Positions 376 to 28,678 of a stretch of DNA of 64,000 nt are shown in pieces. Numbering within the stretch: the stretch's first letter is position 1; the number at the start of each line of letters is the position of its first letter. Source of the stretch: Botryllus schlosseri (lineage: Eukaryota); assembly GCA_051294905.1 (NCBI GenBank), contig CM119371.1:12154001-12218000 (forward strand). Direction: 5' to 3'. A program made the position numbers and the translations under genes. Under the pieces are notes generated by a model. It was given only the letters and a program-made list of their open reading frames with translations, was not told the DNA's origin and searched no databases.

Positions 376-683
376 TTGCGTTCTTTCTTTCAGACACGCC
401 GTAATGATCGCCACAAGATCATCGTTTATGTTGCAGTCATACAAACCCAAGTACATCAGACTTTCACTCCTTGCTGCAAGCGATCCAACGATATGAGCCT
501 CATCGCGACTCAATGAGATCTGAGATGCAATGATATCAGAAATTTGTCTCATAAGATCGTCTTCTCCTGATTCATAGATTGCTGTATACAGTTCCATGCG
601 AACGCGCTCGTTGTCCTCATTCTCCTTGAGTTGCGAAAGAATCTTTACGGCGAGAAATCGTTCTCTCAGCGACCGATTTGAGA
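376..683 (-). CDS. NLR-like gene, exon encoding HD2-like region and first LRR-like repeat
   Basis: Translation ...RVRMELYTAIYESGEDDLMRQISDII...IVGSLAARSESLMYLGLYDCNINDD resembles the NLR HD2 (LELFxCLYESQ) and RI-type LRR (LxxLxLxxCxI) patterns. Acceptor tttgcttgacag at 684 (phase 1) and donor CAA|gtgagt at 375 (phase 0). Phase matches the NACHT exon donor. Confidence 0.8.
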
Positions 684-1996
684 CTGTCAAGCAAATATTG
701 CACCTCACTATATGATATTACAATTGAGTACACAGAAACCACAGTTTTCACAGAAGAACAGCCAAGTGGACGGATTGAAGGCACCTTTGCCCACATATTC
801 TTGACTCGGACACCTGTTTACACAACGACACAATGAATTCAAGACGCTATCTCATTAGTGAAATATCGAATCTAAAGTTGCATCGGTAAAATTTACAATT
901 ACCCGTCGGAGATTATTCGACTGCCTACGCGACCTAATGTACGCATGCCGACAGAATATGAAAAATTTCTGATTGCATTGATCTCTTACTGCATTGTGAC
1001 CGTATAGTGCGAAAGAGCATGAATTCAGTAAGCTCGTTGGATCCATGCCCACCATATTGTCAAGCGTTTTAGATTGTTTTCCTACAATTAAATTCCTCGA
1101 AATTATTTTGAAACTTAGCAAAATAAATATTTATTACAAGCATTCTCAGTAGGAAGAACAGCGACTTGGAGCCATTCGTAAAAGTTGCATTACATCACAA
1201 TATATTACGTATACATGTTGATCGCATATATTTTATCGCCCATGCACTAGATTTCAAATTTCTACCCGTTCAGCAAGATACTGCAGTCTGTTAATAACGA
1301 CTTGTTTATTTGTTGCACTCATTAGAATACATATTGCATTCCAATATCAAATTTTCAAGCATACTAGCGGCCATCCCGATTCCGTAACTACCTTGGTTCA
1401 ATTCCATTTATCGCAAAGCCACAGAAGCTGTGTTCACCTCATTTTTCGGAGACAGACGTTTTTAAAGCACAGTCACCGTCGCTGTAAGGCCATGAGCAAT
1501 ATGAGCATCTTTTTGAATTTGCACATATATACCAAGGAAAATATGACTGGCGATGCGCACAATGATTTGAGTATTCTAATCCGAATTGAGAAGGCCTAAT
1601 CAAATAGCACAAGATTTTTTAGAGTTCCGAAATTATATGCCTCAATACACTGAGAGTTATGTTATCCTCGATAATTATAGTTTCGAGGAACGTGGAAGCC
1701 TTGAAACCTCAAGTGCTTACATCACAACATCCAAAACGAAGTAGTAGTGCGAAGCTACGCACGCTATCGGGCATGATATTTATGTGAGGTCGTAATAAAA
1801 CTAGGGCATGGTATGGTATGGAACGAGGGTTTTTCATACACCATACTTGCCTTACTCTCTCCATACCATACTTGCAATTTTCCATACCATACCAACATTG
1901 TTCCATACAATACTTGAAACATATTCCATACTTTCAGATACCTCAATATCATAAGTATAGTACCTTTTCTAGCACCTGAACTATTGATATTTCTGA

Positions 1997-3814
1997 CAGG
2001 GCATGGTATGGTATGGTATGGTATGGAAGTATGGTATGGTATGGATCGATATTTTGGTATGGAATATGGAATGGAAGATTTTAATCTATGGTATGGAACG
2101 ACATTTCCATACTTCCATACTTTGATGTTTTATAGATTTTATCGTGATCTGTGCAAGCTTCATGAAGCGTACGTTGTTCGCTGTTCACGGAATACGATCG
2201 CTTTTGTTATGTGTGAACGTAAACTATTGAACGCTGTGTAGGAACAAATAGGCCTACACGCTTATGCAACGGTTTTAGGAGCATTTGGAATGACATTATT
2301 TAGTGATGTAATAATGACAACAGTAATGTTGATCCTATATTCTAATAGAATCTATTGAGTCTAAACACGACGTCTCCGAGCATAGTCTATCATGTGACGC
2401 AATAATTGGTAATGTAGGCTACTCCAACTAAAACTCATTCCTTGAGTGACGACAGCTTACAAGCAATCATGATGTAAGGTACTAAATGCTCAATGTGATT
2501 GATAATTACATTTCTTCTGAAACATTGTCCGCACATTTATACTATTTACATACCGAGATATCTTATTGGTCATATTTCAAACGCTCTCGAATTAGGATTA
2601 TAGATCAGCTAGTGGGATAAATATATAGTTTGAACTTCTCGCCACGCTAACCCCAACCAAATACTGTACTAATACTCAGGCAGATCGCTGCAGTATTGAT
2701 CGCCTGCAGCCGGGATATTTTATGGGTGCGCCTATATTTTAAATTATGAGCGAGTAGTTACTTCAAACTTGCATGTGCCTCATGCCAATGTGCCGGACAT
2801 TCGATGATATTCTTGTGGAGCAGGGGCGGGTAACTTCTTCAGTTGGCGGGCCGGATATAGGAAAATTAGGAACTTGGCGGGCCGGATTGCTGAATGGATC
2901 AATTATTCGCCCATATATACAAGGAAGAAATTGTATTTAATGAATGTATTTTGTCGACTGCAATGTCACTTCAAAGCCATTTCTCGCCCATAATGACAAT
3001 ACAATATGGATTTGAGAACAGCATTGTCGTACACGTGCAGGCACCGCAATGTCTGCTTCTCTCTGATCAACTAACTCACGGTGCAATCCTTGATTAAGAT
3101 TTAAAACGTTTGATAGGCCCGGCACCCAAAATTTACCAAGATATCAATTCATTAGGGTTGAGTGCATCGTTAGTGCCGATAATGCAAGTCTTCTCGCTTC
3201 GACGAACTTACGCGTAAGCTCCACTCTCGTACGCTGCGCAGTGCGCACACCTATATAATAACATACAGTCACTAAAATTTGACGTTTAGGCAAGTAGTGG
3301 GGAATCTCGGCAGACTTGGGCCGCGGGCCGGAAGACGGGAAATTGTAAGACGGGAAAGACGGGAAATTGTCCGCGGGCCGGACAAAATATTGTTGGGGGC
3401 CGCATCCGGTCCGCGGGTCATATGTTGCCACTCCCTTTTATGGACGGTCCTAGATAACAATCAGCTGACTATCTCATTTTTCTCGTGGAAGCTGTAGAGT
3501 AGACGTACACGGCACCTCACCATCGTGAACTAAATCTCACCAAAACATACTCTGTAAAACTACGTATTACCAGGAATTAGATTCGCATCACGGCTAGTTT
3601 AAGCAATAATGACATCCGAAATATCAATAATATAGGTGCTATAAAAGGTACTATACTTATGATATGGAAGTATTTGAAAGTATGGAATATGTATCAAGTA
3701 TGGTATGGAACAATGTTGGTATGGTGTGGAAAATTGCAAGTATGGTATGGAGAGAGTAAGGCAAGTATGGAGTATGGAAAATTCTCGTTCCATACCATAC
3801 CATACCATGCCCTG
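1997..3814. mobile_element. Second copy of the same (TATGG)n element, inserted in inverted orientation inside the first
   Basis: TIR CAGGGCATGGTATGG...CCATACCATGCCCTG; perfect TSD ATTTCTGA at 1989-1996 and 3815-3822. Confidence 0.9.
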
Positions 3815-4994
3815 ATTTCTGATGTCATTATTGCTTAAACTAGCCATGATGCGAATCTAATTCCCGGTAATATCGTTTTACAGAGTCTGTTTTGGTGAGG
3901 TTTAGTTCACGGTGGTGTGGTGCCGTGTACGTCTACTCTACAGCTTCTGCGAGCAAAATGAGATAATCGGTAGATTGTTATCTGGGACCGTCCATAAAAG
4001 GGACGGGCAACATACGGCCTGCGGGCCGGATGCGGCCCGCTACGTGATTTTGTCCGGCCCACGGACAGTTTCCCGTCTTACATGATAATGTGGCCCGGGG
4101 CTCCAGTCTCCCGAGATTTCCCACTACTTGCCTAAACGTCAAATTTTAGTGACTGTATGTTAATATTTACGTGTGCGCACTGCGCAGCGTGCAAGAGTGG
4201 AGCTTACGCGTAAGTTCGTCGAAGCGAGAAGACTTGCACTATCGCCATCGGCCTTTATGATGTACTCAACCCTAATGAATTGATATCTTGGTAAATTTTG
4301 GGTACCGGGCTTATCAAATGATTTGAAATCTTGATTAAGGATTGCACCGTGAGTTAGTTGATCAGAGAAGCAGACATGGCGGCTATGACAATACTGTTCT
4401 CAAATCCACATTATGTTCGTCATTATCGGCGAGAAATGGATCTGAAGTGACATTGCTATCGTTACAATACTTTCATTAAATTTGATTTGTTCCTTGTGTA
4501 TATGAATGAATAATGTATCGATTCAGCAATCCAGCCCGCCAAGTTTCTCATTTTCCCGCCGATTGGAGAAGTTGTCCGCCCATGCTCCATAAGAATATCA
4601 TCGCATTTCCGGTACATTGGCATGATGCCGATGCAAGTTTGAAGTAAATATTTACAAATAATTCATAATATAGGCCCACCCATAAAATATCCCAGCTGCA
4701 GGCGATCAATACAGCAGCGATCTGCGTGATTATTAGTACAGTATTTGGTTGGGGTTAGTGTGGCGAGAATTACAAACTACATATACCCCACTCCCTGATC
4801 TATAATCCTAATGCGAGAGCGTTTGAAATATGACCAATAAAATATCTCGGTATGTAAATAGTGTAAATGTGCGGACAATGTTTCAGAGGAAATGTCATTA
4901 TCAATCACATTGAGCAATTAGTAGGCTATGTTGCATCAAGATTGCTTGTAAGCTGTCGTCACTCAAGGAATGAGGTAGTTGGAGTAGCCTACAT

Positions 4995-7186
4995 CAGTCG
5001 TTCTCAACCGCCGGTCCGCGGACCGGTGCCGGTCCGCCAGACATTTTGTAATTTTATACTTAATAGCAAAATGAAATAAGTAGAAGGCTTATAAATGGAT
5101 AAAATGAGCAACACATCACATTTAAAACTGAATAAAAACATCCCCATTTTATTCGTACTACGCATTTCGTAGTACGTTTGGTTGTAGTGGGAAATGAGCA
5201 AAGGGGTTTGTCCCGACTCCGAAACGCTTCTTCTCTCGACATTATCGAATCGAAGAAAAATACTCAAGTTGGGGTATTCCCGGGGCTCCCCACCTAGGGG
5301 TCACGACCCCAACGGGTCCGTTGACCTATTCTACGTAGTCGCGGGCACAGAAATTAAATACCAATGACCATTGCAAGAATGCCATTAAACCGGGTTCTAT
5401 CGGCAGTTCATTTCTGAATATTCTAGTTCATTTTGCAACATAGAAAAAAACGACCTCGGAAAAATGCGAACTTGGTAAACAAGGTATCGGGTCAGTCGAA
5501 GGGTCATACTAAAACGCCACTCACTCTAACGTAAGGTTGGCATCTGGCCACCTCTATTAAAATTCAAATGTCTTGAGGCTAGAAATCAATGGGATGGTAA
5601 TTTTCCTTCCAGGAAAACTATAAGTGACCGATAGTGATATGTGTTAACATAGTGGTTCTCAAACTGGGTCCCGAGGTTCGTTTGGGGTCTGCGAGAAATG
5701 TTCCGAAAAATTCAAACAATCCGAAAAAAACTAAATTTTGGAATATAAAAATATTCAGGCAAATTATTGTTAAATCAAACTCGATGGTAGCCGACATAAT
5801 ATCATTAATCAAGATAAAGTAGAATATTTTAGTGCTAAATTATTCAATTTTAAATTTGAGTTTCGCCTTGCGCGCTTTAGTTTCACTACGCATTTCTCAA
5901 TTTTATTGTGCGTATTCCCACCCAGGAACAAAATACGCATAGATTTACAGAATTGAAATCTAAAGAATATTCCTGCATTCGCAATGATGCGAGCATCGCT
6001 TAAGGCCGTTGAAATACTTTAATCTAGGAACGCGTAAAGCGTGACTGCATTATCGGCATTCCGGCGCTGAACGTTACGCGTCACGACACACTACGACATA
6101 GACCGGTTTTGCCAACAAACGACTTCACGAGAAGTGCGCTGGAAAATATCACTGGCGGCATGTTGGCCGGAACCGTCGATATTGATCTGTTCAGGCACTG
6201 AAATAGTCGTCACGGAATAGTCCTAATCTAAGCCGCGCGCGGAGGAAAATAATTCTCCCAGTGTTAAAATGCGAATTGCAAAATGATTTTTTCTCCAATA
6301 TTATTCGATTAGCCACAATAATTACCTGGGTTTACGAAATAACAACATGCTTCAACAAATTAATTACTGTAATATTGACAAAATGTATACTCCCTAAAAG
6401 ACTTCGCGAAAGGGTAGTATTGAAATTACCGGATGCGATAAGAGGGGTCTGAAGAATTCTTTCCCAGAAATTAAATTGATCGCCCTTTGACGACCAAGCC
6501 CACCGTTTATGGGTGTTTGCGTTAATTTGGTAAGGCGCCGTGAGTCATACAAAAGATTGCGAAGCGACCGTTTCGTGAAGTTTTCGTAAAAGTTTGAGAA
6601 CCAGAGTTAACAGAACAAACAAACACCTTGAGCGCGGCCGAGCAACTTAGAAATTGTTGTCTGCATTTCGCGCGACGTAGAATTTCACGTAGCAGTATTC
6701 GACTTCTTTGACTCGATATAGATAGAAATCGTTCCAAAACATGAATGTATTGGTATATAGTCTGGGACGGAGAACGAGATTGATACGCACATGGTCGTCA
6801 AGACCATAGGAGTACGTTTGGGCGGGGGGAGTGATCACCATTTTTTGTAGTCAGCACGCCAAATTGAGAGGTGAGGTCGCGGGACATTTTCAAAATGGTA
6901 TCAGGTGTCTTGAGGTTGCGACCATAAAAGGGTTGGGCTCCCCTGTTGTAGTCGGTTAATCCAAGGCCTTCGGCCTTCGGCACACTACCACATAATTTCA
7001 TGAATGCCGTCATGAACACAAATTAAACTCTCAAAATGTCACTCTCTAGTGGCATTACAAAAAATGGTTGCATGCTTTTATCGCAATTGCAATTCGGGTT
7101 TATTCAATTTTTGAAGATCCACCGGTCCGCCGACTATTTTTTGAAATTTTACCGGTCCGCGAGCTCAAAAAGGTTGAGAACCACTG
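4995..7186. mobile_element. Non-autonomous hAT (Buster/Charlie-like) element
   Basis: TIR CAGTCGTTCTCAACC...GGTTGAGAACCACTG; perfect TSD GCCTACAT (4987-4994, 7187-7194); the empty site is visible in the sister copy at 2412-2419. Confidence 0.9.
5650..6604. mobile_element. hAT-type element nested in 4995-7186
   Basis: TAGTGGTTCTCAAAC...GTTTGAGAACCAG; flanks tgttaaca/agttaaca; right TIR is degraded. Confidence 0.6.
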
Positions 7187-8056
7187 GCCTACATTACCAA
7201 TTATTGCGTCACCTGATAGACTATGCTCGGAGACGTCTTGTCTAGACTCAGTAGAAAATAGGATCAACATTACTGTTGTCATTATTACATCACAGGATCA
7301 TGTCATTACAAGTGCTCTTATAAAACCGTTGCACAAGCGTGTATACTGTATATGTTCCTACACAGCATTCAATAGTTCACGTTCATACACACACGACAAA
7401 AGCGATCGTACTCCGTTAACAGCGAACAACGTAAGCTTCCTAAAGCTTGCACAGATCACGATAAAATACCAAAGTAAGGGAGTATGGAAATGTCGTTCCA
7501 TACCATAGATTAAAATCTTCCATTCCATACCATACTTGCATTGTTCCGTATTCCATACCAAAATATCGATCCATATCATACCATACCATACTTCCATACC
7601 ATACCATACCATACCCTGGATAAAACTACAGCATAGTCGCTAAGTCTAGTGTGGTCGGTATGATCGAAAATACCAAATTATGTTCATGTGGTATAGAAGT
7701 AGTACTATTTTCCTTGTGGCTTTGCGTATCATACAGTTAGTGGTGATGCTATGAGTGATACTTGAATACTCGACTAGACTTGTCCAGCCTATGAATAGAA
7801 ACGCAACGCTGGAATCCACAATGTCATTTGCTGCTGAGCAGCGTAAAACCAGCATAATCAGTACTCCTACAGATGGTGATCCGAACGTTAACAGTAACTA
7901 AGCAGATCTTAAACGATAACAGATTCCAAAAATATAATATTTGAGTCCTGCCAGGGCAATGAAACCACCCCGAATAGCACTGAAAGTCGTGAAATTGGCA
8001 TTGTTCGAGCAATCGGACCGCCACTACACCATGACAATAGCAATGGCCTATCGGTG

Positions 8057-8320
8057 GGTCGAGATAGCGCAGTGGTATATTCCGCGGCTGCAACACCAAT
8101 GGGTTGCGGGTTCGAGTCCGACCAAGGTCGACTTCAGAATTCCTACACCTAAGTGTTTAAGGTTTTTCTAGGCTCCTCCCCGCCGTCTCATCCGCGTAGC
8201 GTTGTCTTACAAAAAGAAGTAAGCCGTGCAATAAGTTGAGATGGAATAAAAAATGAAGAATTTCGGTCTGGTGTAAATGACCATTGTATTCGACAAACAC
8301 CACGAATACCTCAAAAGAAA
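8057..8320 (+). mobile_element. tRNA-derived SINE
   Basis: A box TAGCGCAGTGG (8065-8075), B box GGTTCGAGTCC (8109-8119); body and tail (tgtaaatgacca...aatacc) shared with copies near 40450 and 56675. Confidence 0.75.
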
Positions 8321-9896
8321 TGGCAAATTGCGTCGAGCGATTGTTCGGAACAATGAACGATCACAGTTGGTAAACTAGACTCAAACCGTAAGACTCAGCT
8401 CACAATTGAATCACTCCGATACTTAATATATGAAAAGACCACACTCGCTCCTAGAGGCGGATAATTCACAGCCTTGTGTTTAATGGGAGTTTTCTTATGG
8501 ATTCATATTTTATCATATGATTTTGCAAGTAGCTCATAGGCGTATTTCGTCGTTATGTACCTGGCAAATTGTAGCCGCCGTACTGCCCTAAGGTGTCGCT
8601 GTGGCTCCTTCACACTCCCGCCCAGCAAGGAAGTGGACTCAGTGTCATTGTTACCTCACAGCGGTAACTTGGTTTGACGTATCGTGGTGTAGGCCTAACT
8701 CACTGTTTCGTGCACGTGCGTTAGTGGTAGGATCGTGCTGGCATTAGTTCACTTGATAGAATAGGATTAGTAAGGCTCTTGCATTGCTAGAATATGGTTA
8801 ATTCATTCATTGTCTCACTGTTTTGATATCTTGTTACAGTCAAAGTAAATCTATAAATATAAAAAAAAACGGAAGACACATTGTCAAGTAAGATGCCTTT
8901 TATTTGATTAGCCTAGGACGTACTTGCCAATGCTTATTGTATTTCATTTTTAATAGAAAACACGCACCAACAAAGCGAGTCTTTTGCTCTGTGCCGAAAG
9001 GGAATATAAGCAGCCAGATATTTCAATCCACCCTGTGGCGCGATCTGTGGGTTGCGGCTACACAAATGAATGCCGGCAATTCAAGATGTGATCTAACCGT
9101 TAGGCCTATTAGTGATATCTCGAGGAAAGAGTTATGTCGTATACTGCCCAAAAATAGGAAAATCTGACATAATCATGAACAGTGTCAGTTCAAATATCAC
9201 AGTAATATAATTTTGTTTTGCGGGTTTCGCAATTTACAAATGACGAATACGGTTTCACTGCATTCTATCTGTCTTGAAATTGAATCGATGTTCTTGGTAA
9301 ACGTATTCAGGAGATAAATATGATCCTTCTGCAGTCAGAGATGCCACTCCTGGGTTTTCCCACCCAGATCTGGGTTTTTCGAGCATCACCTGGGTTTCTG
9401 GGTTTTTGTGCTAGAAATCTGGGTTTTTTCAACATCATGTTTGTCAGGTCAATTTTGAGGCGCAAAATTGATTATTAGCTTGATAAGATCTTATAACATC
9501 GACGGATTGTACTGTGATTGAGTCTAAAGAGACCCATTTACTATTAAAATGAGAGGTCTTGGCGTGATGAGAGAGCTTAATTGAATACTGACTACTAGGT
9601 CACAGAAAGTCATTTTCACAAGGCAACTCTGGAGCATTTGTTTTGCAATTTAAAACGATTTAGGACTTGAATGTTAGCGCTGCAACAAATTCGTTGTGTG
9701 TCAGTAAATAGTATGTAACTGCTGTAAAGTATGCAATTAATGCACAGGAAAGACCAAATGTTGATCTAACTAATTAACCATGTTGACATCAGAGTATATT
9801 CATTTTCAACAGGGACACTCAAAGAGACAGTTTGGGCACCCGGGCAAGTTATTATTCTGAGGGAGAGGGGTTTGTCAAATTCAAATGTACCCTTAA

Positions 9897-10841
9897 CCCT
9901 TTTAATGGGGGGGGTCACTGGTGACCCAAGTTCAAGTTCATCCCGCAATTTCTCCAGAGATATATGTCGTAGCGGACTGCTTTTGGTTTCTATGAAAAGC
10001 CTGCTATCTTCTGATTAATATGATACCTAATTTGAAGGTACAGGGCATGAAAATTTTCGAATACCGACGATCTTACATGAAGAGTTCGGCTGAAAATACC
10101 CATACCTAAAATTTCCAGATATTTTCCGAGTGGAAAATATAGTCAGAAATTCTGCCAGAACATAGGAAGTCGACTTGTACGGTATTCTGTGTGATTTATC
10201 ACCGTTTGGAACATCAAACCTTGTTCTGGGGCGTTTTCTGAGGGGGTTTGGTAATTGTGGTCACGCTTCGGTGATTTTCAAGAACATAGCCAAGTTCAAG
10301 ACGGAAAATGAGTCATAAACTGGTTTACTATGCCTGCAAATAGTGGGATATGACAAGAGAAAGTATACCACGTTGTTTTATGCCATTAACCGGGTGGTAG
10401 GGGTCCGATTCGGTATTGATCTTGAACTTGACCATTATGACCACTCACTGACCACGCCCATATGTAAATTTTTCATGTAATATTGATTTTTCGATGTCTG
10501 GCGAGCCGCGCGGTTTACGGTCATGGTTGACGGCTTGTTTGAAACCAGGCAACGGTGGCTACGCACTGAGGCATCATTTTTGACTCTCTGACGCCATCCT
10601 GGGGGCCAGAGGGGAGAAATGAGAGAGAGAAAGAGATTTTTCAGAGAAAAAGTTTGTATATTTAGTCGTATAAAGAACCCTAGACATGGCATGGGGTGTC
10701 GATCGAGGGTGGAAACGGTAGACGGCTATACTCCGGCCACTTTTAAACTGGAATAACTCAGATTAAGGTCTTGGTGAGGTCACGGTATGAATTTGAAAAG
10801 TGATGGTCAGTTCTGCAAAATCGGACCCCCCATTAAAAGGG
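9897..10841. mobile_element. Non-autonomous piggyBac-type element
   Basis: TTAA on both flanks (9893-9896, 10842-10845); TIR CCCTTTTAATGGGGGG...CCCCCCATTAAAAGGG. Confidence 0.85.
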
Positions 10842-10886
10842 TTAATTTCACGATATTCATCCACCACATTTTTGATACGTTGTGGC

Positions 10887-11381
10887 TAGGGCTGGGCAAA
10901 ATCGAGTACCCGAGTGATTCGATTCTGAATCACGTAAAATGCTTCGAGTCGAGTCGAGTAATCGAGTACCACTCATTATGACGTCATAACAGAATGTTAT
11001 AAGTCAGAGTTCAATTAGGTACCTTTAATGCGACCACAAAGAATATAATTCCTGTTATCCATCACATTAAACATAATTAGGCATTTTTTTCGACCATACC
11101 GATTTCATTGCACTCGGTGACAATATCGTGTCACATTTCCAGTAACGTTCGTAGGTTTGTACTATATGTTACGTATGCTACGATATGGCCAATCACGATT
11201 TCCAGGCTTCAACAGTGAAAATTAGTATCGAAACTATAATTCTCGTTGATAAATTAACTTTCAGTGGCGAGGAGCGTAGAATTTCAGTACTCGAAAAAAT
11301 CGTCTTTTACTACTCGACTCGAATCATTAAAATTAATACTCGATTCAGATTCGAGTACTCGAATCATTGTGCCCAGCCCTA
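10887..11381 (+). mobile_element. ~0.5 kb hAT-type MITE, TAGGGCTGGGCA family (copy 1 of 5)
   Basis: TIR TAGGGCTGGGCA...TGCCCAGCCCTA; perfect TSD GTTGTGGC; TCGAGTA subterminal repeats. Confidence 0.9.
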
Positions 11382-12887
11382 GTTGTGGCAATAACTATTT
11401 AGTAAAACGCAGCATTATGGTATTGATGTCGGAAATATGATTTATAAATTTATTTTATAATATATCACAATTAGTCCATATGTATAGGCTACCGAAATAT
11501 CTATATAATTTCATCCGTATCGTTGGGTAGTCGAAACATCTGGAAGCAATGAATCAGCCAATCTTTCGCAGAAGAAGAACAGCTAATTGCTTTACGCAAC
11601 GACCGTATTCTAGGACGCTGCTTCTACAGAAAAAATAGATGATTTTTTGTCGTCTACATCCCTAACCATAATCGATACAAAAGCAATCAAGATTATCTCA
11701 ATCTATGTTGGTATAAACAGGCACGCAGCCATCGTTTTTAAAACGTGAAATATTTGTAAAGCGACATTTCTATTGTGGTGCAATCTGGATAAGTTAGGGA
11801 ACCACTGCGGTAAATATATACGAATGTTGACGAATACACTACAATATTTTGATTACCGAAATAAATTTGGGGGTATTCGAGCTCCAGTTACGCTACGTCA
11901 CTGTGTGCGATTTGAGTTCAGTTTATGTATAATTCCGATATTTCGAATTTCACTAAATTGCAATTGATTGAAAAACTGGGAAAGCGACGGAACGACTTGG
12001 TATCCTGATCACGTCGAGTAGCCTATACGCTGCCTGAGTAACCCAGGCCTACGTCTTTTTGTGTCTGTGTATTGCGGGCATTAAAGTGTATGGGTTCAAC
12101 GTTATCGTCGTCAACTTGAGAATAGGGATTGTCTCAACCCTGAAATATCGCTATAATGTATTTAGAATTGCTTTTGATACGTCATGAAAGAATTTGAAAT
12201 ACAGCAAAGCTAGCAGATGAAAGTAAAACGTAAGCATGCTGAGCACAGATATTCGCAAACCTTGAAGTTGAATTTCGTGGAGTCTTCAAGTGACCTTGAA
12301 CGAAACGAGTTATCCGAGTACATGACTAATATGTGCGTCCGTTCTTTTTCGACTAAACATCCCAGATAAAAGTGCTTGTCCCAGGTTTAATGAATCGAAA
12401 GCTATTTTTAATCTCTCTGGTCAGCTCACAGTCACTGGAACTACCCTAAAATCATCCTCATCATAGATGAGGATTAGCATTGTGACAAACATTACGAATA
12501 TATAATAAACTACGTATTGACCCCCCCCCCCCTCCATACCGAATACCCGTAGCAATGTGTCGAGAGGAAAGCATCATATTTCGATGAATTTGCTCATTTA
12601 ACTGAGCAAAATGTATAGTATGAAAATGCACAGTTGGGATTTCAATATCAAGGGCTAAAACTTCTTCTATGTTCGTATAACTGTCATTGATGACTCTCAG
12701 TCACTGTTTTGCAGCTATATCATATAAATTTGAGTGAAATATAGGATCTGGGTTTTTCTGGGTTTTTTCAACGTCCAAATCTGGGTTTTTCCAAAATATC
12801 TCAGTGGCATCTCTGTCTGCAGTGAATCATGCGAAATCAAGTTAATCAAGCGAATCACAAAAAACTATATTCTCTGATGAGACCTAC

Positions 12888-14330
12888 CTTCATGAAGATC
12901 ATCCGGCGTTTCGTCGTATATGATGCCGCACACGAATCTGCGGACGTCCGACCATCGCTCTTTGTGCAAGTGTTTAGAGTTGAAGCTGATGAACTTTGTA
13001 CGCGTCATTTCGACTACAAAGCCCGCTGCGAGGAATTCCTGGAGACTTTGATGGCAGAAGTAGAAAATGAAATTGCCATCCAACAGATTGCAACTGAGGA
13101 GGTTATTTCCTGGAACCTTCATCACGAGATCTCGAACTTCTTCTTTTGAAAGTCCAAACTTCTTCAAATCATTTTCAGAGAATGTCACTCTACCTTCTTT
13201 CATGCCACGATATGCCATCGCTTTCAATTTGTTGATAACTCCGGCGATTGCATCAGCCTTTCTGATGTTTTTCACGCTACTTAGAGTGGATATAATTTTT
13301 TTGTAGAGTCCTGTGATCGTCTTAGGAGGAGCTTCGTTCGGATTCTGGGCCATGATCACTGCGGTTAAGACTAGAAAAACGGGAATGGAAACTAAATTGA
13401 TCAGCCTTGGTGACGTCGTTTCCATCTTCTCCCATGCCTCATCCCCATGCTGATGTATTAGAAACACAAAAAGCTTCTTTGCGTCATCTAGGGTCAGACC
13501 AGAAAGTGTGATGATGTCGGCAGGCCGAGCTTTCGCGGGCAAATCCGAGACTTGGAATTCCCGGGAAGAGAAGACGATCTTCGTATCAGCGAGTAGATTA
13601 CGTGAGAGGATATTGTACATTATCGTTGCTGCTTTGGCTGGAGTATAGGGGTTTATGCTCTTGTGACCATGTCTGTTAATTTTCCAAGTAGCCTGATCCA
13701 AGCCGTCGAAAAATAGTACTGCCTCTGATTGATGTTCGAGCAACCACTGATACGCATGTTCCTCGTCGATCTCATCCTGAAAGAGGCCACCGAAGAGAAA
13801 TTTAGATGGTTTCATGGAGCCTTCATCTCGCATTCCTTTTATTTCTATATAAGATATTAATTTGTACTTGAGCTTAGAGGGGCTGACAGTTGCATCCGCA
13901 TTTGTCAGTGAATGGCCTAAAGTTTTTCTGGCGATTCTGCGCATGAGAGTGGTTTTTCCAGATCCAGCAGACGCAACGATAGCAGTGATAGAACTTCCTC
14001 CGTTGATAGCTTGTTGCAAAACTTCATCCAGCTCGATGAATTTGTTGTCGTCAACTTTTTGTCGAAGGAATCCGAACTCCTTTCTCAACTGATTTTTTAC
14101 AACCTTTTTCTTTTGCCAGAAGAATAATTTTCTTTTTACTGCAACTTCCATTTCCTGCACCTCTTCATAATTGTCTTTGAAATATTCTGACTTTGTTACC
14201 CTTCTCATCTGGGGATGAACATAGAAATCAGGTTTGCTGAGGTCGTAGGCGCCGATGTCTTCGAGGATTCTGTCCGTCGACTTTTGAGACGCAATATCGT
14301 TTATGCATTTTATCAGGGCTGAAGCTTTTT
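12888..14330 (-). CDS. NLR-like gene, NACHT NTPase exon (pre-NACHT linker, NACHT, HD1, winged helix, start of HD2)
   Basis: Lies within an uninterrupted 497-aa ORF. Walker A ASAGSGKTT, Walker B LFFDGLDQ, sensor-1 IVFSSRE, IPVFL, winged-helix YFCHQSLQEFLAA, RWSDVRRFVCG. Acceptor tattgttatcttccag at 14331 and donor G|gtaggt at 12887, both phase 1. Confidence 0.92.
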
Positions 14331-15929
14331 CTGGAAGATAACAATATTCGTTCTTCATTATATTTTATGAATAGAAATGATTGGAGAAAAGCTCTTACTA
14401 TTTTTTGTTATTATTCTATATAACCCAGCACCTAGGTATTCAAGAAAGATATAGAGATTTATATTGTGAATATTGCAGAATCTTGTGCCGGGATTCTCAA
14501 CCTTTGTTCAGCAATTGCCCATTTTGCGGTTTTAAAACGCCATGTGGTCCACCTCTTATCCTAGAGTCATGATCCTGTTTAATTTGCGGTAATCGCCGCC
14601 GCTGATATGCCTATTCGTCTAACATGTGCGCATTTTTCTCATACTAATCATGTTTCAATTTATACCTCTATACCAGGATCGGTCAACCTGCGATTCCAAT
14701 ATATTTCCACTCCAGCGACAATTCTGATGGGAGGTCAAGATATATAACAGCATACAAGAAAGTGACTAATAACAATTGACCCACGCAAAGATCCATCACC
14801 ATTTATAACTTGTCCTAAATTTTCGAAAACACCCGCTCCATCAACTCTACCGTTTAATATGAACACATGGACCGAGAAAAATGAATGTTTGATAGGAATA
14901 TGCGAAATTTCTAATATGAATTGGAAAATTCATAGATGATTCCCAAACATTTTCGCCCGAGGATGACTAATCCCAGCCAATGTCATAACATGACCAGTCA
15001 CCACTCGCGATTTCGGTGTGTATACTGAGCAGACATGAATGAATAAATTAGTCTTGAGGTCACCGGAAATGGATACTGCACAGTTTCAACATTCCAGTAG
15101 GTGGTAGGTATTTCGCGTCCAGTTTATAACGACCATGCCCTGGTATGAGGCCGTGTACAATATGGGATTATGGGTGTTTTGACATGCGGTCGTCATTGGC
15201 AAAAAGTTTGGCCACCCCTGCCTGACCTGGGCGCTCGTGAAATCACAGTGAGCGCGACGAGAAGTTTTAAAGTAAATAAATATCCTTCAACAAACGGCTA
15301 ACGAAATGATTTTGGACGCCTTTGCGCTACCCTAATTAGGGGTTTGGGGTGCGGCAGTTACGACCCCGGTTGATTGGTGGATAATCCGAGTATAATCAAC
15401 GAAAAACTCCAATAACTCCCCTTCTACTAGTTGGAATTGAATCAAATTTGTTTTGCATGGTCGCTGAAGACAGCTCAACAATTTCATGGGGTTGACGTTA
15501 AAATTTGAATTTTTTTTAATTTTCCTGTTTAAATTAAAAAATTCAATTGGATCTGCGGAGCCCTATACCTGTAAGAATTGAACCAAATTTGGTGTGCCGC
15601 GTTTTTAGGGTAACCTGACGATTTAAGAGGTGACCGGTTTAAATCGGGGAAAAAAAGTTATTTTTGAACATCCCTAGCCGGGGGGTGATGAGGTATGGCC
15701 CGCTGTCTGTATTGAATTAATAAATGCTATTCATATCCTTAAAACCTCAACTCCTGTCACAGTTACCAACAATTTGGATATACTGATATAAAGCTGGGCT
15801 GGAAGTGGACAATTCATTTATTTCAATTCCTGGATTGATCAAAAGTCATAACGCATAACAAAACCAGATAACTAAAAATATGTAACATGAAAATCACTAT
15901 CAAATTATGCGTCTTTCGCATCAACTATC

Positions 15930-16250
15930 CCATCAAATCCAAATGTCACAGCTCTATTTCTTGTTAAAGTGGAAGTGACAAACCATAATACATATTGGAG
16001 CATATGATGACATATAGGCCTACTGTGCTAACCAACTTTTCACCTCTTCATTGACGACAGTATTGGCAAACGATTTTGAAATCTTTTTCATGTGAGATTC
16101 ATCCCCTGTCTTCTCCAGAGACCTGTTTAATGTAGCTCTACCAATTTTGTATTGACGGCGTGCTTCTCGTTTTGATACCTCCCATCAGTCCAATGCTTTA
16201 ACTTTTCGTATTGCCAAGCTCAGATCTGATTATGAAAACTGGCCATTTTG
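15930..16250 (-). pseudogene. Degenerate pogo/Tigger-like transposase N-terminus (psq-type HTH plus start of CENP-B-type HTH)
   Basis: Hand translation FS*SDLSLAIRKVK...VSKREARRQYKIGRATLNRSL...EEVKKLV...MYYGLS with in-frame stops. Boundaries approximate. Confidence 0.5.
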
Positions 16251-17698
16251 TGGGTTTCATGATTTACTCGCAAGTGATTGTATATGGGGGGGGGGGGGGA
16301 TAAGACCAACGCCTTCTCCATTGTAGAGATATATATATTTAAGAGGATCAATCAAATATTGAATTCAGGTATATGATGTGCTGCGCCATACCCAGCCTAT
16401 TGAGGTATGGACCAGCGTGCTGAAAAGCCCACACCTCAATCACTCCATCTTGGGGATTCTTACCATAATTTCAAGATCCGAGAGATTGACAAAGCAATAA
16501 AACTATTCTCTATAGATAGCATATTTCTATAGCTTTCACACCATAAACAAGTCTAATCCAAACATGCGCATACGTAAACTCAGACCAAAATTCTTAATTT
16601 TCAAATAAATTTACTATAGACAGCAAAAATTATTTATCCCTGGCCGCGGGTTTGCCAGTAAAGCAATACCAATTTGAAATCGTGTGTGATTTTTAGTTTG
16701 GGCGATTTCCATATCTTTTGACATAGCAGATAAAGGAGGTCACGAAATAGCATAACGTAATGAAGTCAATATACCAACGGGTCCGCCTCAAAATGTTTAA
16801 TTAATATTTAGGGGACCGATCTTTTCCACCACACCTCATTCAGCTCTACCGGTAAATCTGATTACGCGAGCAGAGAGGGGATAAAAAATTGATAACAAAA
16901 TATATGCAATTCCCGATCATATTTACCGATTCAAACACGAACTATATAAATTGTTCGCGCTTCGCGAGTTTAGTCCAAATAGGGCGATGCACTAAACAGT
17001 ATACCCAATGTAGCTCATAAGTAGCGGGGAAAATGGTTACAGGCTCAGCGGGGCTGAGGGGGGTTCATCACCGTATGGGGGCCCAAGATCAACGTTTTTT
17101 GTCGGGGCTGACGAAGTGCTGTTACGGTCCTGGTGGGGAATGAAGGCTCGGAATAAATCTGAAGTGGGGAATAAAAAAAATGGTTGGGAACCATTGCTCT
17201 GAACAAGTCGAAGATGGGAGGGGAAACAGCGAATTTTGTCCCCTGGCTATGACAACCTACGGCCAACAGCAACGACAATAATTTCGATTATATAATAACT
17301 GGAAGTCAATGCTGAAGTATCCAAGTATTCCGGCAGTGTCACTCGTCGTATGCCCTTGAAAAAGATGTGCTTGAACTGAAATGCATTTGATGTAGAATTA
17401 TAGATTGATGGTAGGCCTATACTTCGGCAGTTCGTATTATTGTAACATAAAAATAGCCACAATTGCAATTTATTATCAATTATAAACTTCCTATGGAAGT
17501 ATACGGCATCACCGAAGCGAATCGTAATGTATTGAGGACCTAGCACAGAACATTCATCTTTGAAGTCGCTCTGACAATGTGTGGCCTTGAAGTCATTGTA
17601 CAATGCACATAATGTACGAGTAACATGACTTGATTGTAATATTGGATTTAATGTTCTGATAACACGACTTCCATAGGTACAAGACATACTATGTACAT

Positions 17699-18188
17699 TA
17701 GGGCTGTTCAAAAATAACTCTTTTTCCTGATCCTTGCTTGCTACTTGATTATATCGTTAGGTAGCCTTAAAAAACGACTTACACCAAATTTGAATTCATT
17801 CTAACCAATATTCGCGGGTTTCGTACAGTTTGAAAATTTTGAATTTCCGTTTTTCTTTAATAATTCTTGGATTATCCACCGATCAAGGATATCCATAGAA
17901 TTATCAAAGAAAAACTGAAATAACTCCGCTTCTACGGCTTGGAATTGAGTCAAATTTGTGTTGCATAGTTTTTGAAGACAGCCCAACAATTTCGTGGGGT
18001 TGTCTGAAAAATTTGAAAAAAATATTTTTGCATTTTTGGGAAATTCAAAATTTTCAATCCGTACGAAACCCGCGAATATTGGTTGGAATGAATTCAAATT
18101 TGATGTTTGTCGTTTTTTAAGGCAACCTAACGATTTAATCGAGTAGCCAGCAAGATTCAGGAAAAAGAGTTATATTTGAACAGCCCTA
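17699..18188. mobile_element. Palindromic MITE
   Basis: TAGGGCTGTTCAAA...TTTGAACAGCCCTA with long internal inverted arms; flanks atgtacat/aggtacac; related sequence at about 15330-15676. Confidence 0.75.
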
Positions 18189-19525
18189 AGGTACACAAGC
18201 TAGCATATAAAAATTCGTTCTCCACTTCTCTGTAGTATCCCATTCACCAAAGAATTGTTTGAAGCGGGGCCAGAATAACAATATTATTCCCCACCATATA
18301 GTTGAACTAAAACCGCAAACACATAGTGGATGCGGGGATTAGATCGTTGAGTTTCTCAAAGTGAGAGTTATGCGCATTCCGAACCCCGAATCGGGGATAG
18401 CTCAAAAGGGCCCAAAATTATTTCATGGGTTGGTTGTTGGCTGAGATTTATAGAACTTGAAAATTTTCTTCGCGCGATTTCGTGTCCCTTAAGGCCTGTG
18501 TTTAAATATGATTGGTAAGAGAAAAATCCGCCAATTTTAGAGAGATAGGAATATCGGCGGCGGCTATTACCACACATTAAACAGGACTCTGACTCTGGGT
18601 AGGATAACAGATGGGCCACAGAACATCTTGAAGCCAGAAAATGGGCCACGGCCAAAAGAAGGCTGAGAACCCCTGAATAGGTTAACAGGGTTGAAACAAT
18701 AGGGCTGACAAAAATATAGATTAGTCGGTAGTGAAGTATAAGAAATTTCTGCAAATGGTATATTGAATTTTTCATTGTTATGGAGATTGGCATTGGGACG
18801 CAAAGTTGGCCAAAGTTGCGGATCCTAAGAAAAATACATTGTTATTGTACTGCGTGCCAGGTTCCACACAGAGCCTTATTAGAAAATGATATGAATTCTT
18901 TTATTTTCTTCGATATCCTTCGGAATATTATTTCCGCAACGAGCAAAAAGTACGGTATTTGAATAACTTCTCAACTGTTTTAGATGGATAACACTGGTCT
19001 ACACAAGATTTCAGGTTTGGGTTTTGACAACTGATCTTAGCTAATTTTGGGGCGCTGAATCCGAAAATGACCTCAGATTTTCTCCATCACATCACGGTTT
19101 TGAGATATGAAATATCTCAGATTAAAAAAAAAATTCAATTTTTGACCCCCCCTCTGTTGTCAAAACAAGGGATTCTGATGTAATAAACACTGTTTTACCT
19201 GCAATAATCTAGCTTTAATTAGCAAACAAGCATTCTATATTTGATTCACACAGATTTGCGTCGTCTTTATTAAAATTTTATGCCCCGGAATAAAAAATAG
19301 GCATGCAAAAGAGCAACCATACTAAAATTAAACGGTACATCGTGCTGACGAACATATCGATAGGACAGTAACAATGTATTATCTGAATTATAGCGTAGAG
19401 TTCGCACAATACCTACATAGACATTCCAATGATGTTCAAAAATTATGAAGACACAGACTTGGGCAGGGCGAGTTCAGACACAGTAAAAAAACGCTTTCAT
19501 AATATATGAACTCTTCACTTATAAG

Positions 19526-19980
19526 TAGGGCTGGGCAAAATCGAGTACTTGAGTGATTCGATTTTGAATCACGTAATATGCTTCGAGTCGAGTCGAGTAA
19601 TCGAGTATCACTCATTATGACGTCATATCAGAATGTAATATGTAAAAGTTCAGATATGTACCCTTTACGTGCCCACAAAGAATATAATGGCTGTTATCCA
19701 TCACATTAAAGATACTTTGGTATCTTTTCGACCATACCGATTCCATTGCACTTGGCGACAATGTTGTGAGTTGATCATGACTTCGGCCAATCAAGGTTTC
19801 AAGGCTTCAACAGTGAAAATTAGTATCGAAACTATAATTCTCGTTGATAAATTAACTTTCAGCTGCGAGGACCATATAATTTCAGTACTCGATAAAAATC
19901 GTATTTAACTACTCGACTCGAATCATTAAAATTATTACTCGATTCAGATTTGAGTACTCGAATCATTGTGCCCAGCCCTA
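19526..19980 (+). mobile_element. TAGGGCTGGGCA MITE (copy 2), nested in the Chapaev3-like element
   Basis: Same TIRs as copy 1; perfect TSD CTTATAAG. Confidence 0.9.
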
Positions 19981-19981
19981 C

Positions 19982-20830
19982 TTATAAGCTTAAAAATGCT
20001 CTTTTGATGGACTTTCTTTTACGATCAGCATCTGGAATTTCTCTTTTCAAACTCCAGCAATAGTCGACTATCATACGAAAATCCAGGTACAGCTGGCGAC
20101 TGTGTCCTTGTCCTTGCCTGTAACGGATTTTCACGGGTGTGAGAAAGAAATTAATCCAGAAATCCCGCCGATCTTGATAACGGGCCTTCGTAATTTTAAT
20201 ATCTTGGCGTAAACGTTCACCCTGTTCTCCACTAACTTTCCCAAATTTTTTTGGAAACTCATCCGCATGGTTCTTCAAAGCGTCAACTTTGATGTTCATC
20301 CTACGTCCCAAATCTTCAAAACTAAGCAGTAGCTCCTTTTAGAGATCTTCATAATTTTCTGATTTTCTCTTTCCCGAAAAACAGCACCGAAAGCATTCGA
20401 CGATCTAGCCTCGAATGGCAACATTGATTACGTACCAGATTTTTAGCCTTTTACAATTGCCTAATGTGAGGTCCATTGAAAATGCCGGTTCTTTTTTCTC
20501 TTCGCTGAGACCAGAAAAAGCATAACATATATCATTAAAACACCCCCCTTCACAATCCAAGTTAGATGTAAAGAGGAGACAAGAGGATCCTTTTGATATC
20601 AACAAACTGATCACATGATATTTTTGTCTCCAGGCGTCAAGGTGAGCCAGTGCTGATCCTTGACCCTGCTGTCCCAGTAGAATAGGAAACAAGGGTAGGC
20701 TATTCGGTGTAGCCACTTTGTTGCCCCAGCAAAAAGTTCACCATTTTCAGATCTAGACATATGAGCCAGCCATGGTCATGGTACTTGAACTTTTCGAGAA
20801 CGGTTTTGATGTTCTGATACTCTCATTTCC
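19982..20830 (-). pseudogene. Transposase remnant of the Chapaev3-like element
   Basis: MNIKV...FPKKFGKVSGEQGERLRQDI...RYQ...MIVDYCWSLKR, and upstream YHDHGWLICLDLKMVNFLLGQQSGYT; interrupted by stops, deletion and insertion. Confidence 0.75.
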
Positions 20831-21265
20831 TTGTTCATTGCGATAAAATGTCACGCTTGTACCAGCTTTGAGAGTTGCTCTTTTGCATGCATATTGTTTA
20901 ATCCAAGGCATGAAAGTTTAATAAAGACAACGCAAATTTGTTTGAATATAATACTGAATGCTTGTTTGCTAATTAGAGCTGGATTATTGCAGATAAAACA
21001 GTGTTTGTTGCATCAGAATTCCTTGTTTTGAAAACAGAGGAGGGTCAAAAATTGATTTTTTTTTTAAAGGGGAATATTTAATATCTCAAAAACGTGATGT
21101 GATAGAGAAAATCTGAGGCCACTATCGGATTCAGCACCCCAAAATTAGCCAAAATCAGTTATCAAAACCCAAACCCGAAAAAAAGTTGAAATTTGTAGAC
21201 CAGTGTAATATAATCATGCATTTTAAATAGTCTGACCTCAATACAACAGACATTGGGCTACTCAC

Positions 21266-21341
21266 CGCTTATTTCGGGCGATATTGATGTAGGCTTGACA
21301 TCAGCGACATCAGAATTGTTATATTTACCCCCTTCTGCCAT
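21266..21341 (-). CDS. NLR-like gene, probable first coding exon (MAEGGKYNNSDVADVKPTSISPEIS)
   Basis: ATG in good context (aacATGG), strong donor G|gtgagt in phase 1 matching the NACHT exon acceptor, upstream acceptor attatatattttcag at 21386 with in-exon 5' UTR. Not in the ORF track because it is too short. Confidence 0.65.
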
Positions 21342-21685
21342 GTTCTTGATAACCTGGTACTAATTAGCTAGGGTATATGACAAAACTGAAAATATATAAT
21401 AACATTCTGTGTTAGGGGTACCATACGGAGAGAATTTGTCCTCTTCTTTTTACTTTTTTGAAAGTGTCCTCGGACGATGCCCAAATGTAGGCTACTCTTT
21501 TTTGAAGAATTATGCTTCAATATATGGCAAACTTCGACTGAGATACAGTAAATCCGCATTGAAGTAACGAACGCTCCGGCGGCTATTTCGAGAGGTGAGC
21601 CGGAAAGTCGGCCTTATTTTAGTCAACCGACCACGAAGTGAGAAAAATTTACCATTTTATCATGATTTCATCCGGTATTGCAACG

Positions 21686-24583: not shown

Positions 24584-24790
24584 ATTGCAAGCCTGAAAAC
24601 GTTGAAAATGTGTCCTCTTTTATTTTTTCCAAATTATGGTAACCCTATTCTATGTTTCTTTTCTGAACAACAAGCTAATATTATCAATCCTGAGCACAGC
24701 GGGCTATAGAAGACCTGATCGATTATTGGAGCAATTGTCTCCTGTCAACAGTCACATGCTGCTTATGTCGAATAGATATTGCGTGATGAC

Positions 24791-28253: not shown

Positions 28254-28275
28254 GTTTAAAATGTTTAACCTCACC

Positions 28276-28670: not shown

Positions 28671-28678
28671 GTCAATAT

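Follow-up and report, generated by a model that had tools for sequence, protein, structure and literature searches.

In the present study, the NLR gene on the minus strand at positions 376..21341 of the window (the whole stretch of DNA analysed, 64,000 nucleotides) was found to be a 5'-rearranged, otherwise ordinary copy in a lineage-specific NLR expansion. Judged by its sequence, it belongs to a massively expanded NACHT family that is specific to its lineage, in a tunicate-type genome, and its short front end comes mostly from the loss of a small exon (exon 1b) that other members have kept. The absence of a death fold is a trait of the whole MAEGG-type family and not a special design of this gene. 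A new receptor design is not supported for the locus, and the result obtained there is mainly a correction. Taking the evidence jointly, we lean towards an ordinary MAEGG-type NLR paralogue with a chimeric and exon-1b-deleted 5' end, which is probably coding or only recently disabled.

Gene structure and the NACHT module

From 5' to 3', the genes of this family are laid out as exon 1, exon 1b, a large NACHT exon, an HD2/first-repeat exon and a multi-exon tail. Exon 1 has 25 codons and a MAEGG start, exon 1b has 49 codons and a conserved motif (consensus SATLAEGENVNLKFTKSSVNVVAGDQINANKIVYNIT), and the large NACHT exon carries a pre-NBD segment, the NACHT, a winged helix and HD2. The features of the window copy are as follows:

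18542..28259, minus strand: subfamily-B-like 5' block, reaching from the upstream region through exon 1 into intron 1
21266..21341, minus strand: exon 1, the family's first coding exon; 25 codons from the ATG plus 1 nt, peptide MAEGGKYNNSDVADVKPTSISPEIS, GT donor, phase 1
18808..18826, minus strand: exon 1b remnant; AG acceptor (18825-18826) and first 17 nt (18824-18808), followed by unrelated sequence
14331..15152, minus strand: subfamily-A-like end of intron 1; about 80% identical to what immediately precedes the NACHT exon in copies A1261 and A3740
12888..14330, minus strand: exon 2; from the pre-NBD segment through the NACHT NBD, HD1 and winged helix into HD2; 481 codon positions, phase 1 at both ends
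684..12887, minus strand: intron 2; 12.2 kb, enlarged in comparison with close paralogues by insertions (approximate positions 1138-8314, 8570-9062, 9334-12855; from collinear blocks)
376..683, minus strand: exon 3; rest of HD2 and first leucine-rich-repeat-like turn; phase 1 in and 0 out, GT donor, no stop codon
1..375, minus strand: start of intron 3; the gene extends to the left of the window

The first-pass annotation had joined three minus-strand exons in frame (76 + 1443 + 308 nt = 1827 nt, 609 codons), and we could confirm that they are stop-free and bounded by canonical splice sites. These sites are G/gtgagt for the donor of exon 1, ttatcttccag/A and G/gtaggt for the acceptor and donor of exon 2, and ttgcttgacag/T and A/gtgagt for those of exon 3. 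The exons and their joins in that model were correct, but the gene is not complete in it; exon 3 has a GT donor at its end in place of a stop codon, therefore the gene goes on past position 1. The boundaries and phases of the NACHT and HD2 exons match those of the family.

Exon 2 lies within an open frame of 499 codons and holds a Walker A motif at about 13948-13974 and a Walker B motif (FFDGLDQ) at about 13693-13719. In Pfam it matched NACHT (E 9.9e-14, 51.9 bits against a cut-off of 26.7) and NOD2_WH (28.4 bits, cut-off 23.1), and the profile search also matched it to NOD2 and NLRP3. Residues G124, K125 and D208 were invariant in 29 homologues. The AlphaFold2 model of the exon (pLDDT 77.2, pTM 0.78) had NOD2 5irm as its best Foldseek match (E 1.6e-16), and VIA-align superposed it on NLRP3 7vtp_A over 373 residues (Z 31.5, rmsd 3.4), with Z scores of 28.6 for NLRC4 and 28.1 for NOD2. 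By Pfam and by the fold of this model, exon 2 is a NOD2/NLRP3-type NACHT module with the NBD-HD1-WHD-HD2 fold of solved NLRs. An in-frame ATG just 5' of the exon 2 acceptor, seen in the window and in 3/4 close paralogues, was judged to be incidental intron sequence.

The HD2 sequence had been described as continuous across the junction of exons 2 and 3, and homology supports this junction: 10/11 Styela clava proteins were colinear across it (for example P0002, residues 176-595 in exon 2 and then 607-708 in exon 3, by tblastn) and the NLRC4_HD2 matches of these proteins spanned the boundary. Intron 2 is 12.2 kb long in the window and about 1.1-2.5 kb in five close paralogues, and the extra 7.2 kb at 1138-8314 is built of repeats, dispersed and nested in one another (first-look candidates 12,507; at least 168 matches, on many contigs). 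Paralogues of both exons are numerous in the same genome. The counting of paralogues proposed earlier gave at least 91 NACHT-exon matches, with 89/214 candidates scored, and exon 3 had 137 matches.

To the left of the window, collinearity with paralogues reaches about 15 kb. The motif scan, the splice and ORF conservation scans and Pfam together left a single solid candidate for the next exon; it is 105 nt long, of phase 0-0, about 3.4-3.5 kb left of position 1, and its splice sites and open frame are kept in 6/6 paralogues. Of the 114 ORFs downstream, not one matched a Pfam LRR family, and the only LRR-like turn recognised is the one at the end of exon 3.

Loss of exon 1b

Instead of the 49-codon exon 1b of the family, the window copy has its acceptor and 17 nt only. 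In paralogues B1624 and B1869 the exon is intact, with 147 nt and phase 1-1, and in comparison with B1624 the window copy is without about 1.64 kb around it and carries 46 nt in that place. The acceptor of the remnant is strong and intact; if it were used, an in-frame TAA at 18778-18780 would be reached after 14 codons, and there is no in-frame donor.

Several findings point to exon 1b as a real exon. Searching the whole genome with its peptide gave 87 matches, none with a stop and none inside the window. All 20 copies fetched had an AG acceptor and a GT donor (at 147, 144 or 138 nt) with 48 or more open codons between them, and the pooled pN/pS was 0.30 (190 pairs). For 73/87 copies, moreover, an exon-3 copy of the same strand is found 2.7-75 kb downstream. 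Conversely, 73/137 exon-3 copies have no exon 1b detectable within 80 kb, so that genes of the family may often lack it and tolerate this, unless the search is simply insensitive.

Outside its lineage, no sequence relative of the exon 1b motif could be detected (Pfam, profile search). Pfam gave no match at E<=10, the ESM Atlas gave weak leads only (top score 0.87), and AlphaFold predicted the peptide to be disordered on its own (pLDDT 52). Searched as a profile against 1.84 billion representatives, it found 12 proteins at E<=0.001. Two of these are unrelated repeat proteins and ten are short ORFs of 40-124 aa; in the eight of the ten that were inspected, the ORF lies around the same exon. A full-length spliced product with exon 1b was not among the representatives in this search. 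A resemblance of exon 1b to the N-terminal repeats of the Styela proteins was considered and rejected, the best Styela E-value of the HMM being 0.39 in a 35-sequence set.

The peptide is conserved and its hydrophobic residues alternate; one might speculate that it is a signalling or oligomerisation motif acting in the role of a death fold, and that the window copy is a "headless" paralogue which damps or redirects its full-length relatives through co-assembly of NACHT modules; we regard this as a long shot. Analogues of such a motif could be found in fish NLR-B30.2 genes, in their N-terminal peptide exons. Fungal and bacterial NLRs have short amyloid-forming motifs, which are a further possible analogue.

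A 5' end from another subfamily

Sequence comparison shows that the locus is also a chimera, in which the promoter and exon 1 resemble subfamily B and the body resembles subfamily A. Exon 1 with its flanks is 93% identical to copies adjoining subfamily-B NACHT exons, and the NACHT exons beside those copies have only about 50% protein identity to that of the window. Compared with subfamily A, the NACHT exon of the window shows about 90% nucleotide and 84-87% amino acid identity, while subfamily A's own exon 1, a 73-nt version of identical phase in two paralogues, is only about 70% identical to exon 1 of the window. The 5' block is collinear with paralogue C1:1624250 at 84-92% identity (blastn) and is broken up by a 2.2-kb high-copy insertion at about 18992-21205; word depth over 19170-20503 far exceeds that over exon 2. 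The breakpoint between B-like and A-like sequence falls between 18542 and 15152. The acceptor context of exon 2 is kept in 4/4 subfamily-A copies examined, and a search of the window for a second 5' end showed neither a subfamily-A exon 1 nor a copy of exon 1b.

Two rearrangements set the 5' end of this copy apart. The promoter and exon 1 of one subfamily now stand ahead of the body of the other, and a deletion of about 1.6 kb took away 130/147 nt of exon 1b and the donor of that exon. Both exon 1 and exon 2 have phase 1, therefore skipping of the remnant would keep the frame and give an in-frame protein. The predicted product would have the 25-residue leader fused directly onto the pre-NBD segment, without even the short N-terminal motif of the family, and it may be a STAND ATPase sensor that oligomerises when activated, like NOD2 or NLRP3.

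The MAEGG first exon itself is, judged by its copies, a family-wide feature. The query of exon 1 and flanks (191 nt) gave 40 matches in the same genome, the window copy included, and the exon was intact (ATG, 25 open codons, phase-1 GT donor) in 32 of the other 39.

Search for an effector domain

The statement that no recognisable death fold precedes the NACHT was borne out. Pfam found no death-fold, BIR or other domain there, and exon 1 with the first 115 residues of exon 2 had no match even at E<=10 (CARD, PYD, DEATH, DED and BIR included). Structure prediction of the N-terminal part, which had been recommended, agreed with this; AlphaFold gave one confident helix followed by low-confidence segments, and no six-helix bundle. 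Scanning 14331-21265 for additional exons, likewise suggested earlier, was productive as far as the exon 1b remnant (18808-18824) is concerned, but it gave no death-fold exon. Among 71 ORFs of at least 40 aa on both strands of intron 1, there was no effector-type Pfam domain and nothing above cut-offs. When compact paralogue introns, as short as about 2.3 kb, were compared by tblastx, exon 1b alone emerged and nothing further was conserved or open.

It could be argued that an effector exon, death-fold or other, was missed because it is split over small exons or lies far upstream, and ORFs shorter than 40 aa as well as exon-split domains do escape the ORF scan of intron 1. Against this, an in-frame TAG stands at 21360-21362, 21 nt upstream of the ATG, hence exon 1 has no in-frame upstream extension. 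The layout of exon 1, exon 1b and NACHT exon is kept with its phases across dozens of paralogues, the compact introns hold nothing else, Pfam detects no such domain in the intron ORFs, and the relatives in Styela are also without a death-fold domain. A missed effector exon is thus extremely improbable.

The approximately 115 residues before the P-loop are not an effector domain gone missing; their position is that of the FISNA/pre-NBD segment of solved NLRs. Residues 1-4 of the model align with NLRP3 residue 133-135, NLRC4 residue 97 and NOD2 residue 198, which come directly after the respective effector domains. FISNA (PF14484) had no Pfam match, and the pre-P-loop segment aligns from NLRP3 residue 134 on, as judged from range ends only.

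The first-pass annotation had read the gene as a sensor-only, decoy or novel-N-terminus NLR. Such a gene, a purpose-built effector-less receptor (sensor, decoy or regulator) whose minimal N-terminus is a functional design, would fit the undetectable effector domain (Pfam, intron ORFs, AlphaFold), the in-frame joining of exon 1 to exon 2, the purifying selection on the NACHT exon and the failure to detect exon 1b for roughly every second exon-3 copy. However, the short N-terminus was traced to a visible deletion within a conserved exon, no distinct conserved architecture was seen, and the 115 residues are an ordinary pre-NBD segment; we consider such a design improbable. The earlier reading is unsupported because these residues hold the position of the standard segment, because a short N-terminus without death fold is the norm across the family and exon 1b is deleted here, because the locus recombines two subfamilies, and because the window edge cuts the gene and the two RNA runs, at uninformative depth, showed no joint of exon 1 to exon 2.

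Coding status of the window copy

Exon 2 had a dN/dS of 0.23-0.33 against 7 close paralogues. Its private changes in the window copy, 17 synonymous and 17 non-synonymous, correspond to an omega of about 0.27, an average over the entire private branch that is compatible with recent inactivation; five intact paralogues with private changes had 0.23-0.63. These values suggest that the NACHT exon has been under purifying selection on its own branch, therefore the copy is probably coding or was disabled only recently. The copy may still code, and an early stage of pseudogene formation is the other possibility.

A search for RNA data sets containing exon 2 listed none. Window positions 12500-32499 (20 kb), a stretch which excludes the exon 2/exon 3 junction and the tail, were compared with two bulk RNA runs, about 6% of each being used, and with two contig sets. 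RNA depth over exon 2 was 0-1.4x in the two runs, too shallow to inform either way. Most reads (883/890 and 240/241, about 98-99%) fitted the stretch only partly, and the 21266/14330 joint was absent from reads and contigs at this uninformative depth. The contig sets resemble genomic DNA, and one contig crosses exon 2 into intron 2.

As an early pseudogene, the copy would have had its body parted from a working N-terminus when the 5' end was rearranged and exon 1b lost, and its open exons would reflect a young lesion. The destroyed exon 1b with its retained acceptor, from which a premature stop is predicted if it is used, agrees with this, and so do the lengthening of intron 2 by repeat insertions and the near-zero, mostly partial RNA matches of exon 2, at uninformative depth. 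Decay does happen in the family, as 6/91 NACHT-exon copies have stops. On the other hand, exons 1, 2 and 3 are all open with canonical splice sites intact, the private omega of exon 2 is as low as or lower than that of the five intact paralogues, and the skip from exon 1 to exon 2 is frame-compatible. We therefore hold inactivation to be possible but doubtful.

Comparison with known systems

The closest named relatives are the Styela clava NLR-like proteins P0001-P0011, with 29-37% identity over 92-99% of exon 2 (E 1e-80 to 1e-64); among their source names are "NACHT, LRR and PYD domains-containing protein 4C-like" and "protein NLRC5-like". They share the order NACHT, NOD2_WH and HD2 with the window gene and have no Pfam effector domain ahead of the NACHT. 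Unlike it, they have N-terminal low-complexity repeats of 137-470 residues, and their C-termini match ribonuclease-inhibitor-type LRRs, whereas downstream of the window locus no LRR was recognised (114 ORFs, Pfam). With vertebrate NOD2, NLRP3 and NLRC4, the fold is common over the whole of exon 2, and both Walker motifs (A and B) are found together with the histidine context of the winged helix; however, identity is only 13-21% and no CARD or PYD stands in front. The X of the invertebrate "NLRX" genes reportedly means that no N-terminal domain was recognised. These genes, so labelled in Yuen et al. 2014 (PMC3879445), also have a NACHT without recognised N-terminal effector domain, as is common outside vertebrates, but they belong to other phyla and are likened to the window family by domain make-up alone. 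A full-text literature search of limited extent did not turn up a paper dealing with NLR expansions in tunicates or with the N-termini of these NLRs.

The conserved layout of exon 1, exon 1b and NACHT exon is a by-product at the level of the family and is more useful than the result for the locus. The lineage-restricted 49-residue motif of exon 1b, with at least 87 copies, is a concrete candidate for tunicate NLR signalling without death-fold domains, and natural exon-loss variants offer a way to test this idea.

By its organization, the zebrafish NLR-B30.2 family, with its N-terminal peptide exons, is the closest analogue. Passages of Howe et al. 2016 (PMC4852459) describe it (fish NLR-C) as a very large lineage-specific expansion, some groups of which are without death-fold domains, and in which a single large exon holds a pre-NACHT extension, NACHT, winged helix and helical domains. 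According to the same passages (PMC4852459), small family-specific N-terminal peptide motifs, one exon each, replace death-fold domains or stand beside them, and N-terminal exons are shuffled among NACHT subgroups. The large expansion, the single large NACHT exon and the small N-terminal peptide exons are alike in both families. In contrast to the zebrafish motifs described there, exon 1b occurs once per gene, unrepeated, and is without detectable outside relatives; the window gene has no Pfam FISNA match, no B30.2 domain was seen, and the host is a tunicate and not a fish. The joining of two subfamilies at the window locus resembles the shuffling reported there, and the locus illustrates exon shuffling and 5' swapping among tunicate NLR paralogues, in parallel to zebrafish NLR-B30.2.

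Results

In the present study, three minus-strand exons (exon 1, 21266-21341; exon 2, 12888-14330; exon 3, 376-683) were joined into a stop-free frame of 1827 nt, that is 609 codons, and every splice site was canonical (gtgagt, ttatcttccag, gtaggt, ttgcttgacag, gtgagt). Exon 2, the NACHT exon, is contained in an open frame of 499 codons, and exon 1 is not extendable upstream because an in-frame TAG lies 21 nt before its ATG. Exon 3 ends at a GT donor without a stop codon, and therefore the gene exits the window on its left side; the three-exon model of the first-pass annotation holds for its open codons and splice sites but not as a complete gene. A candidate tail exon left of the window (105 nt, phase 0-0) was conserved in 6/6 paralogues, and Pfam recognised no LRR among 114 downstream ORFs. 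The junction of exons 2 and 3, proposed to restore HD2, gained homology support, since 10 of 11 Styela clava proteins match the two exons colinearly and their HD2 matches run across the boundary point. RNA runs gave almost no depth over exon 2, and most of their reads matched only in part. Numerous RNA reads terminate at 16299 and 27239 with poly-G or poly-T stretches absent from the genome, probably artefacts of sequencing or priming at repeats.

Exon 2 was matched in Pfam by NACHT (E 9.9e-14, 51.9 bits, cut-off 26.7), by NOD2_WH (28.4 bits, cut-off 23.1) and weakly by NLRC4_HD2. Its AlphaFold2 model, made from an alignment of 29 sequences, reached pLDDT 77.2 and pTM 0.78, and with this model Foldseek returned rabbit NOD2 at the top (E 1.6e-16), followed by NLRP3, NLRP2, NLRP5, NLRP9 and NLRC4. 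VIA-align gave Z 31.5 and rmsd 3.4 over 373 aligned residues against NLRP3 (7vtp_A), Z 28.6 against NLRC4 and Z 28.1 against NOD2. These alignments start at model residues 1-4, corresponding to NLRP3 133-135, NLRC4 97 and NOD2 198, the positions immediately after the effector domains of those proteins. For this reason the ~115 residues before the P-loop are by position the ordinary pre-NBD (FISNA-position) segment and not a degenerate effector, an equivalence that is positional and taken from the range ends. In the model, this segment has one confident helix (residues 2-16), then low-confidence parts, and no six-helix bundle; neither it nor exon 1 had a Pfam match even at E<=10, in agreement with the earlier view that no death fold is recognisable before NACHT. 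That an effector exon is nevertheless hidden at the locus seems to us extremely improbable.

The closest named proteins to exon 2 were NLR-like proteins of Styela clava (29-37% identity, 92-99% of exon 2 covered), and the remaining close matches were unnamed single-exon ORFs from assembled contigs. None of the Styela relatives has a Pfam effector domain before NACHT; their N-termini consist of 137-470 residues of low-complexity repeats. In nine of these proteins (P0001-P0009), the repeats before the NACHT region have units such as ...TNITGSTVQD...AENVSVV..., for which Pfam holds no family. The paralogue count called for by the first-pass annotation came to 137 exon 3 matches and at least 91 exon 2 matches (six with stops) in the 495-Mb assembly, the latter being a lower bound with 89 of 214 candidates scored; the window itself is G000:C1:12154001-12218000. 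Two NACHT exons, L006 (G000:C1:1261654-1263093) and L007 (1282607-1284046), lie 21 kb apart with identical scores and zero private substitutions, and appear to stem from a tandem segmental duplication that copied an entire NLR gene very recently.

A 191-nt query of exon 1 and its flanks matched the genome 40 times. Of the 39 other copies, 32 retain the ATG, the phase-1 GT donor and 25 open codons, and seven are defective (GC donor in two, AT donor in one, ATG lost in three, deletion in one). Judged by this conservation, the MAEGG exon 1 is no accident. By comparing compact paralogues, we found a second conserved exon (exon 1b), ~150-350 nt 3' of exon 1 where both adjoin closely, of 147 nt (49 codons, phase 1-1) with the consensus SATLAEGENVNLKFTKSSVNVVAGDQINANKIVYNIT... 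A peptide search recovered 87 copies, all of them free of stops. In each of the 20 that were retrieved, an AG acceptor precedes 48 or more open codons; the GT donor lies at 147 nt in 17, 144 nt in two and 138 nt in one, and pooled pN/pS was 0.30 (190 pairs). A same-strand exon 3 copy lies 2.7-75 kb (median 17.7 kb) downstream of 73/87 exon 1b copies. Exon 1b was detectable within 80 kb for only 64 of the 137 exon 3 copies; either the search was insensitive or many members are without it. No Pfam family covers the motif and, among 1.84 billion representative proteins, it has no significant relative beyond short ORFs around that exon; alone in AlphaFold it gave pLDDT 52 and no confident fold. 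A likeness to the Styela N-terminal repeats was rejected, as the exon 1b HMM had no match there.

Blocks and elements at the rearranged locus
From 15152 leftwards to ~15 kb beyond the window: subfamily-A-like block, collinear with the other subfamily
18542-28259: subfamily-B-like block (upstream region, exon 1, start of intron 1), collinear at 84-92%
29221-32725, minus strand: broken non-LTR retrotransposon upstream of the NLR gene, with three adjacent open frames encoding an AP-endonuclease domain, reverse transcriptase and RNase H

In the window, exon 1b is reduced to its acceptor and first 17 nt (18824-18808), beyond which the sequence is unrelated, offers no donor in frame and reaches an in-frame TAA after 14 codons. 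Compared with the subfamily B paralogue B1624, ~1.64 kb is absent and 46 nt stand in place. Paralogues collinear with 18542-28259 have NACHT exons only ~50% protein-identical to that of the locus, and those of subfamily A reach 84-87% protein and ~90% DNA identity; the locus is a chimera of two subfamilies. In subfamily A, the NACHT exons are preceded at 9-22 kb by a 73-nt exon 1 (MAEGGEERISG...) and an exon 1b proper to that subfamily, and no copy of either was found in any part of the 64-kb window. Upstream of exon 1, the segment 23466-24261 has ~64% nucleotide similarity over ~850 nt to sequence just 5' of the B1624/B1869 NACHT exon and carries a 175-codon plus-strand ORF without a Pfam match; it is possibly another repeat.

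Intron 1 holds a high-copy insertion of 2.2 kb, and intron 2 was enlarged by nested dispersed repeats to 12.2 kb, against ~1.1-2.5 kb in five close paralogues. At 1997-7618, inside intron 2, a ~1.8-kb element adjoins its own inverted copy, and between the parts of this element a 2.2-kb one is inserted, which has copies of up to 95% identity on other contigs.

Discussion

Exons 1 and 2 are both phase 1, so if the exon 1b remnant is skipped the frame would stay open, and the predicted protein would have its 25-residue leader joined to the pre-NBD segment. In exon 2, dN/dS was 0.23-0.33 against seven close paralogues, and its private substitutions (17 synonymous, 17 non-synonymous) gave an omega of ~0.27; the coding body was therefore constrained over most of its separate history. 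We consider it reasonably probable that the locus is a 5'-rearranged family member, still coding or disabled only recently. An early pseudogene, to which the truncated exon 1b and its TAA could point and with which the constraint on exon 2 has to be reconciled, is possible, with a clearly smaller chance. Of the effector-less design proposed in the first-pass annotation, the lack of a death fold stands; this lack is not special to this gene, being common to the whole family and sharpened here by the deletion, and a purpose-built effector-less sensor or decoy is quite unlikely.

The locus itself is of modest interest, and what most deserves pursuit is the exon 1b motif shared across the family. 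Full-text search found no paper on tunicate NLR expansions. In the zebrafish NLR-B30.2 genes, as described in PMC4852459, one large exon encodes NACHT together with the Fisna extension and the helical domains, short N-terminal peptide motifs particular to the family each lie on a single exon, some groups are without a death-fold domain, and N-terminal exons have been shuffled among NACHT groups. This is the closest analogue of the tunicate family, which differs in having its own unrelated N-terminal motif, lost in the copy at this locus.
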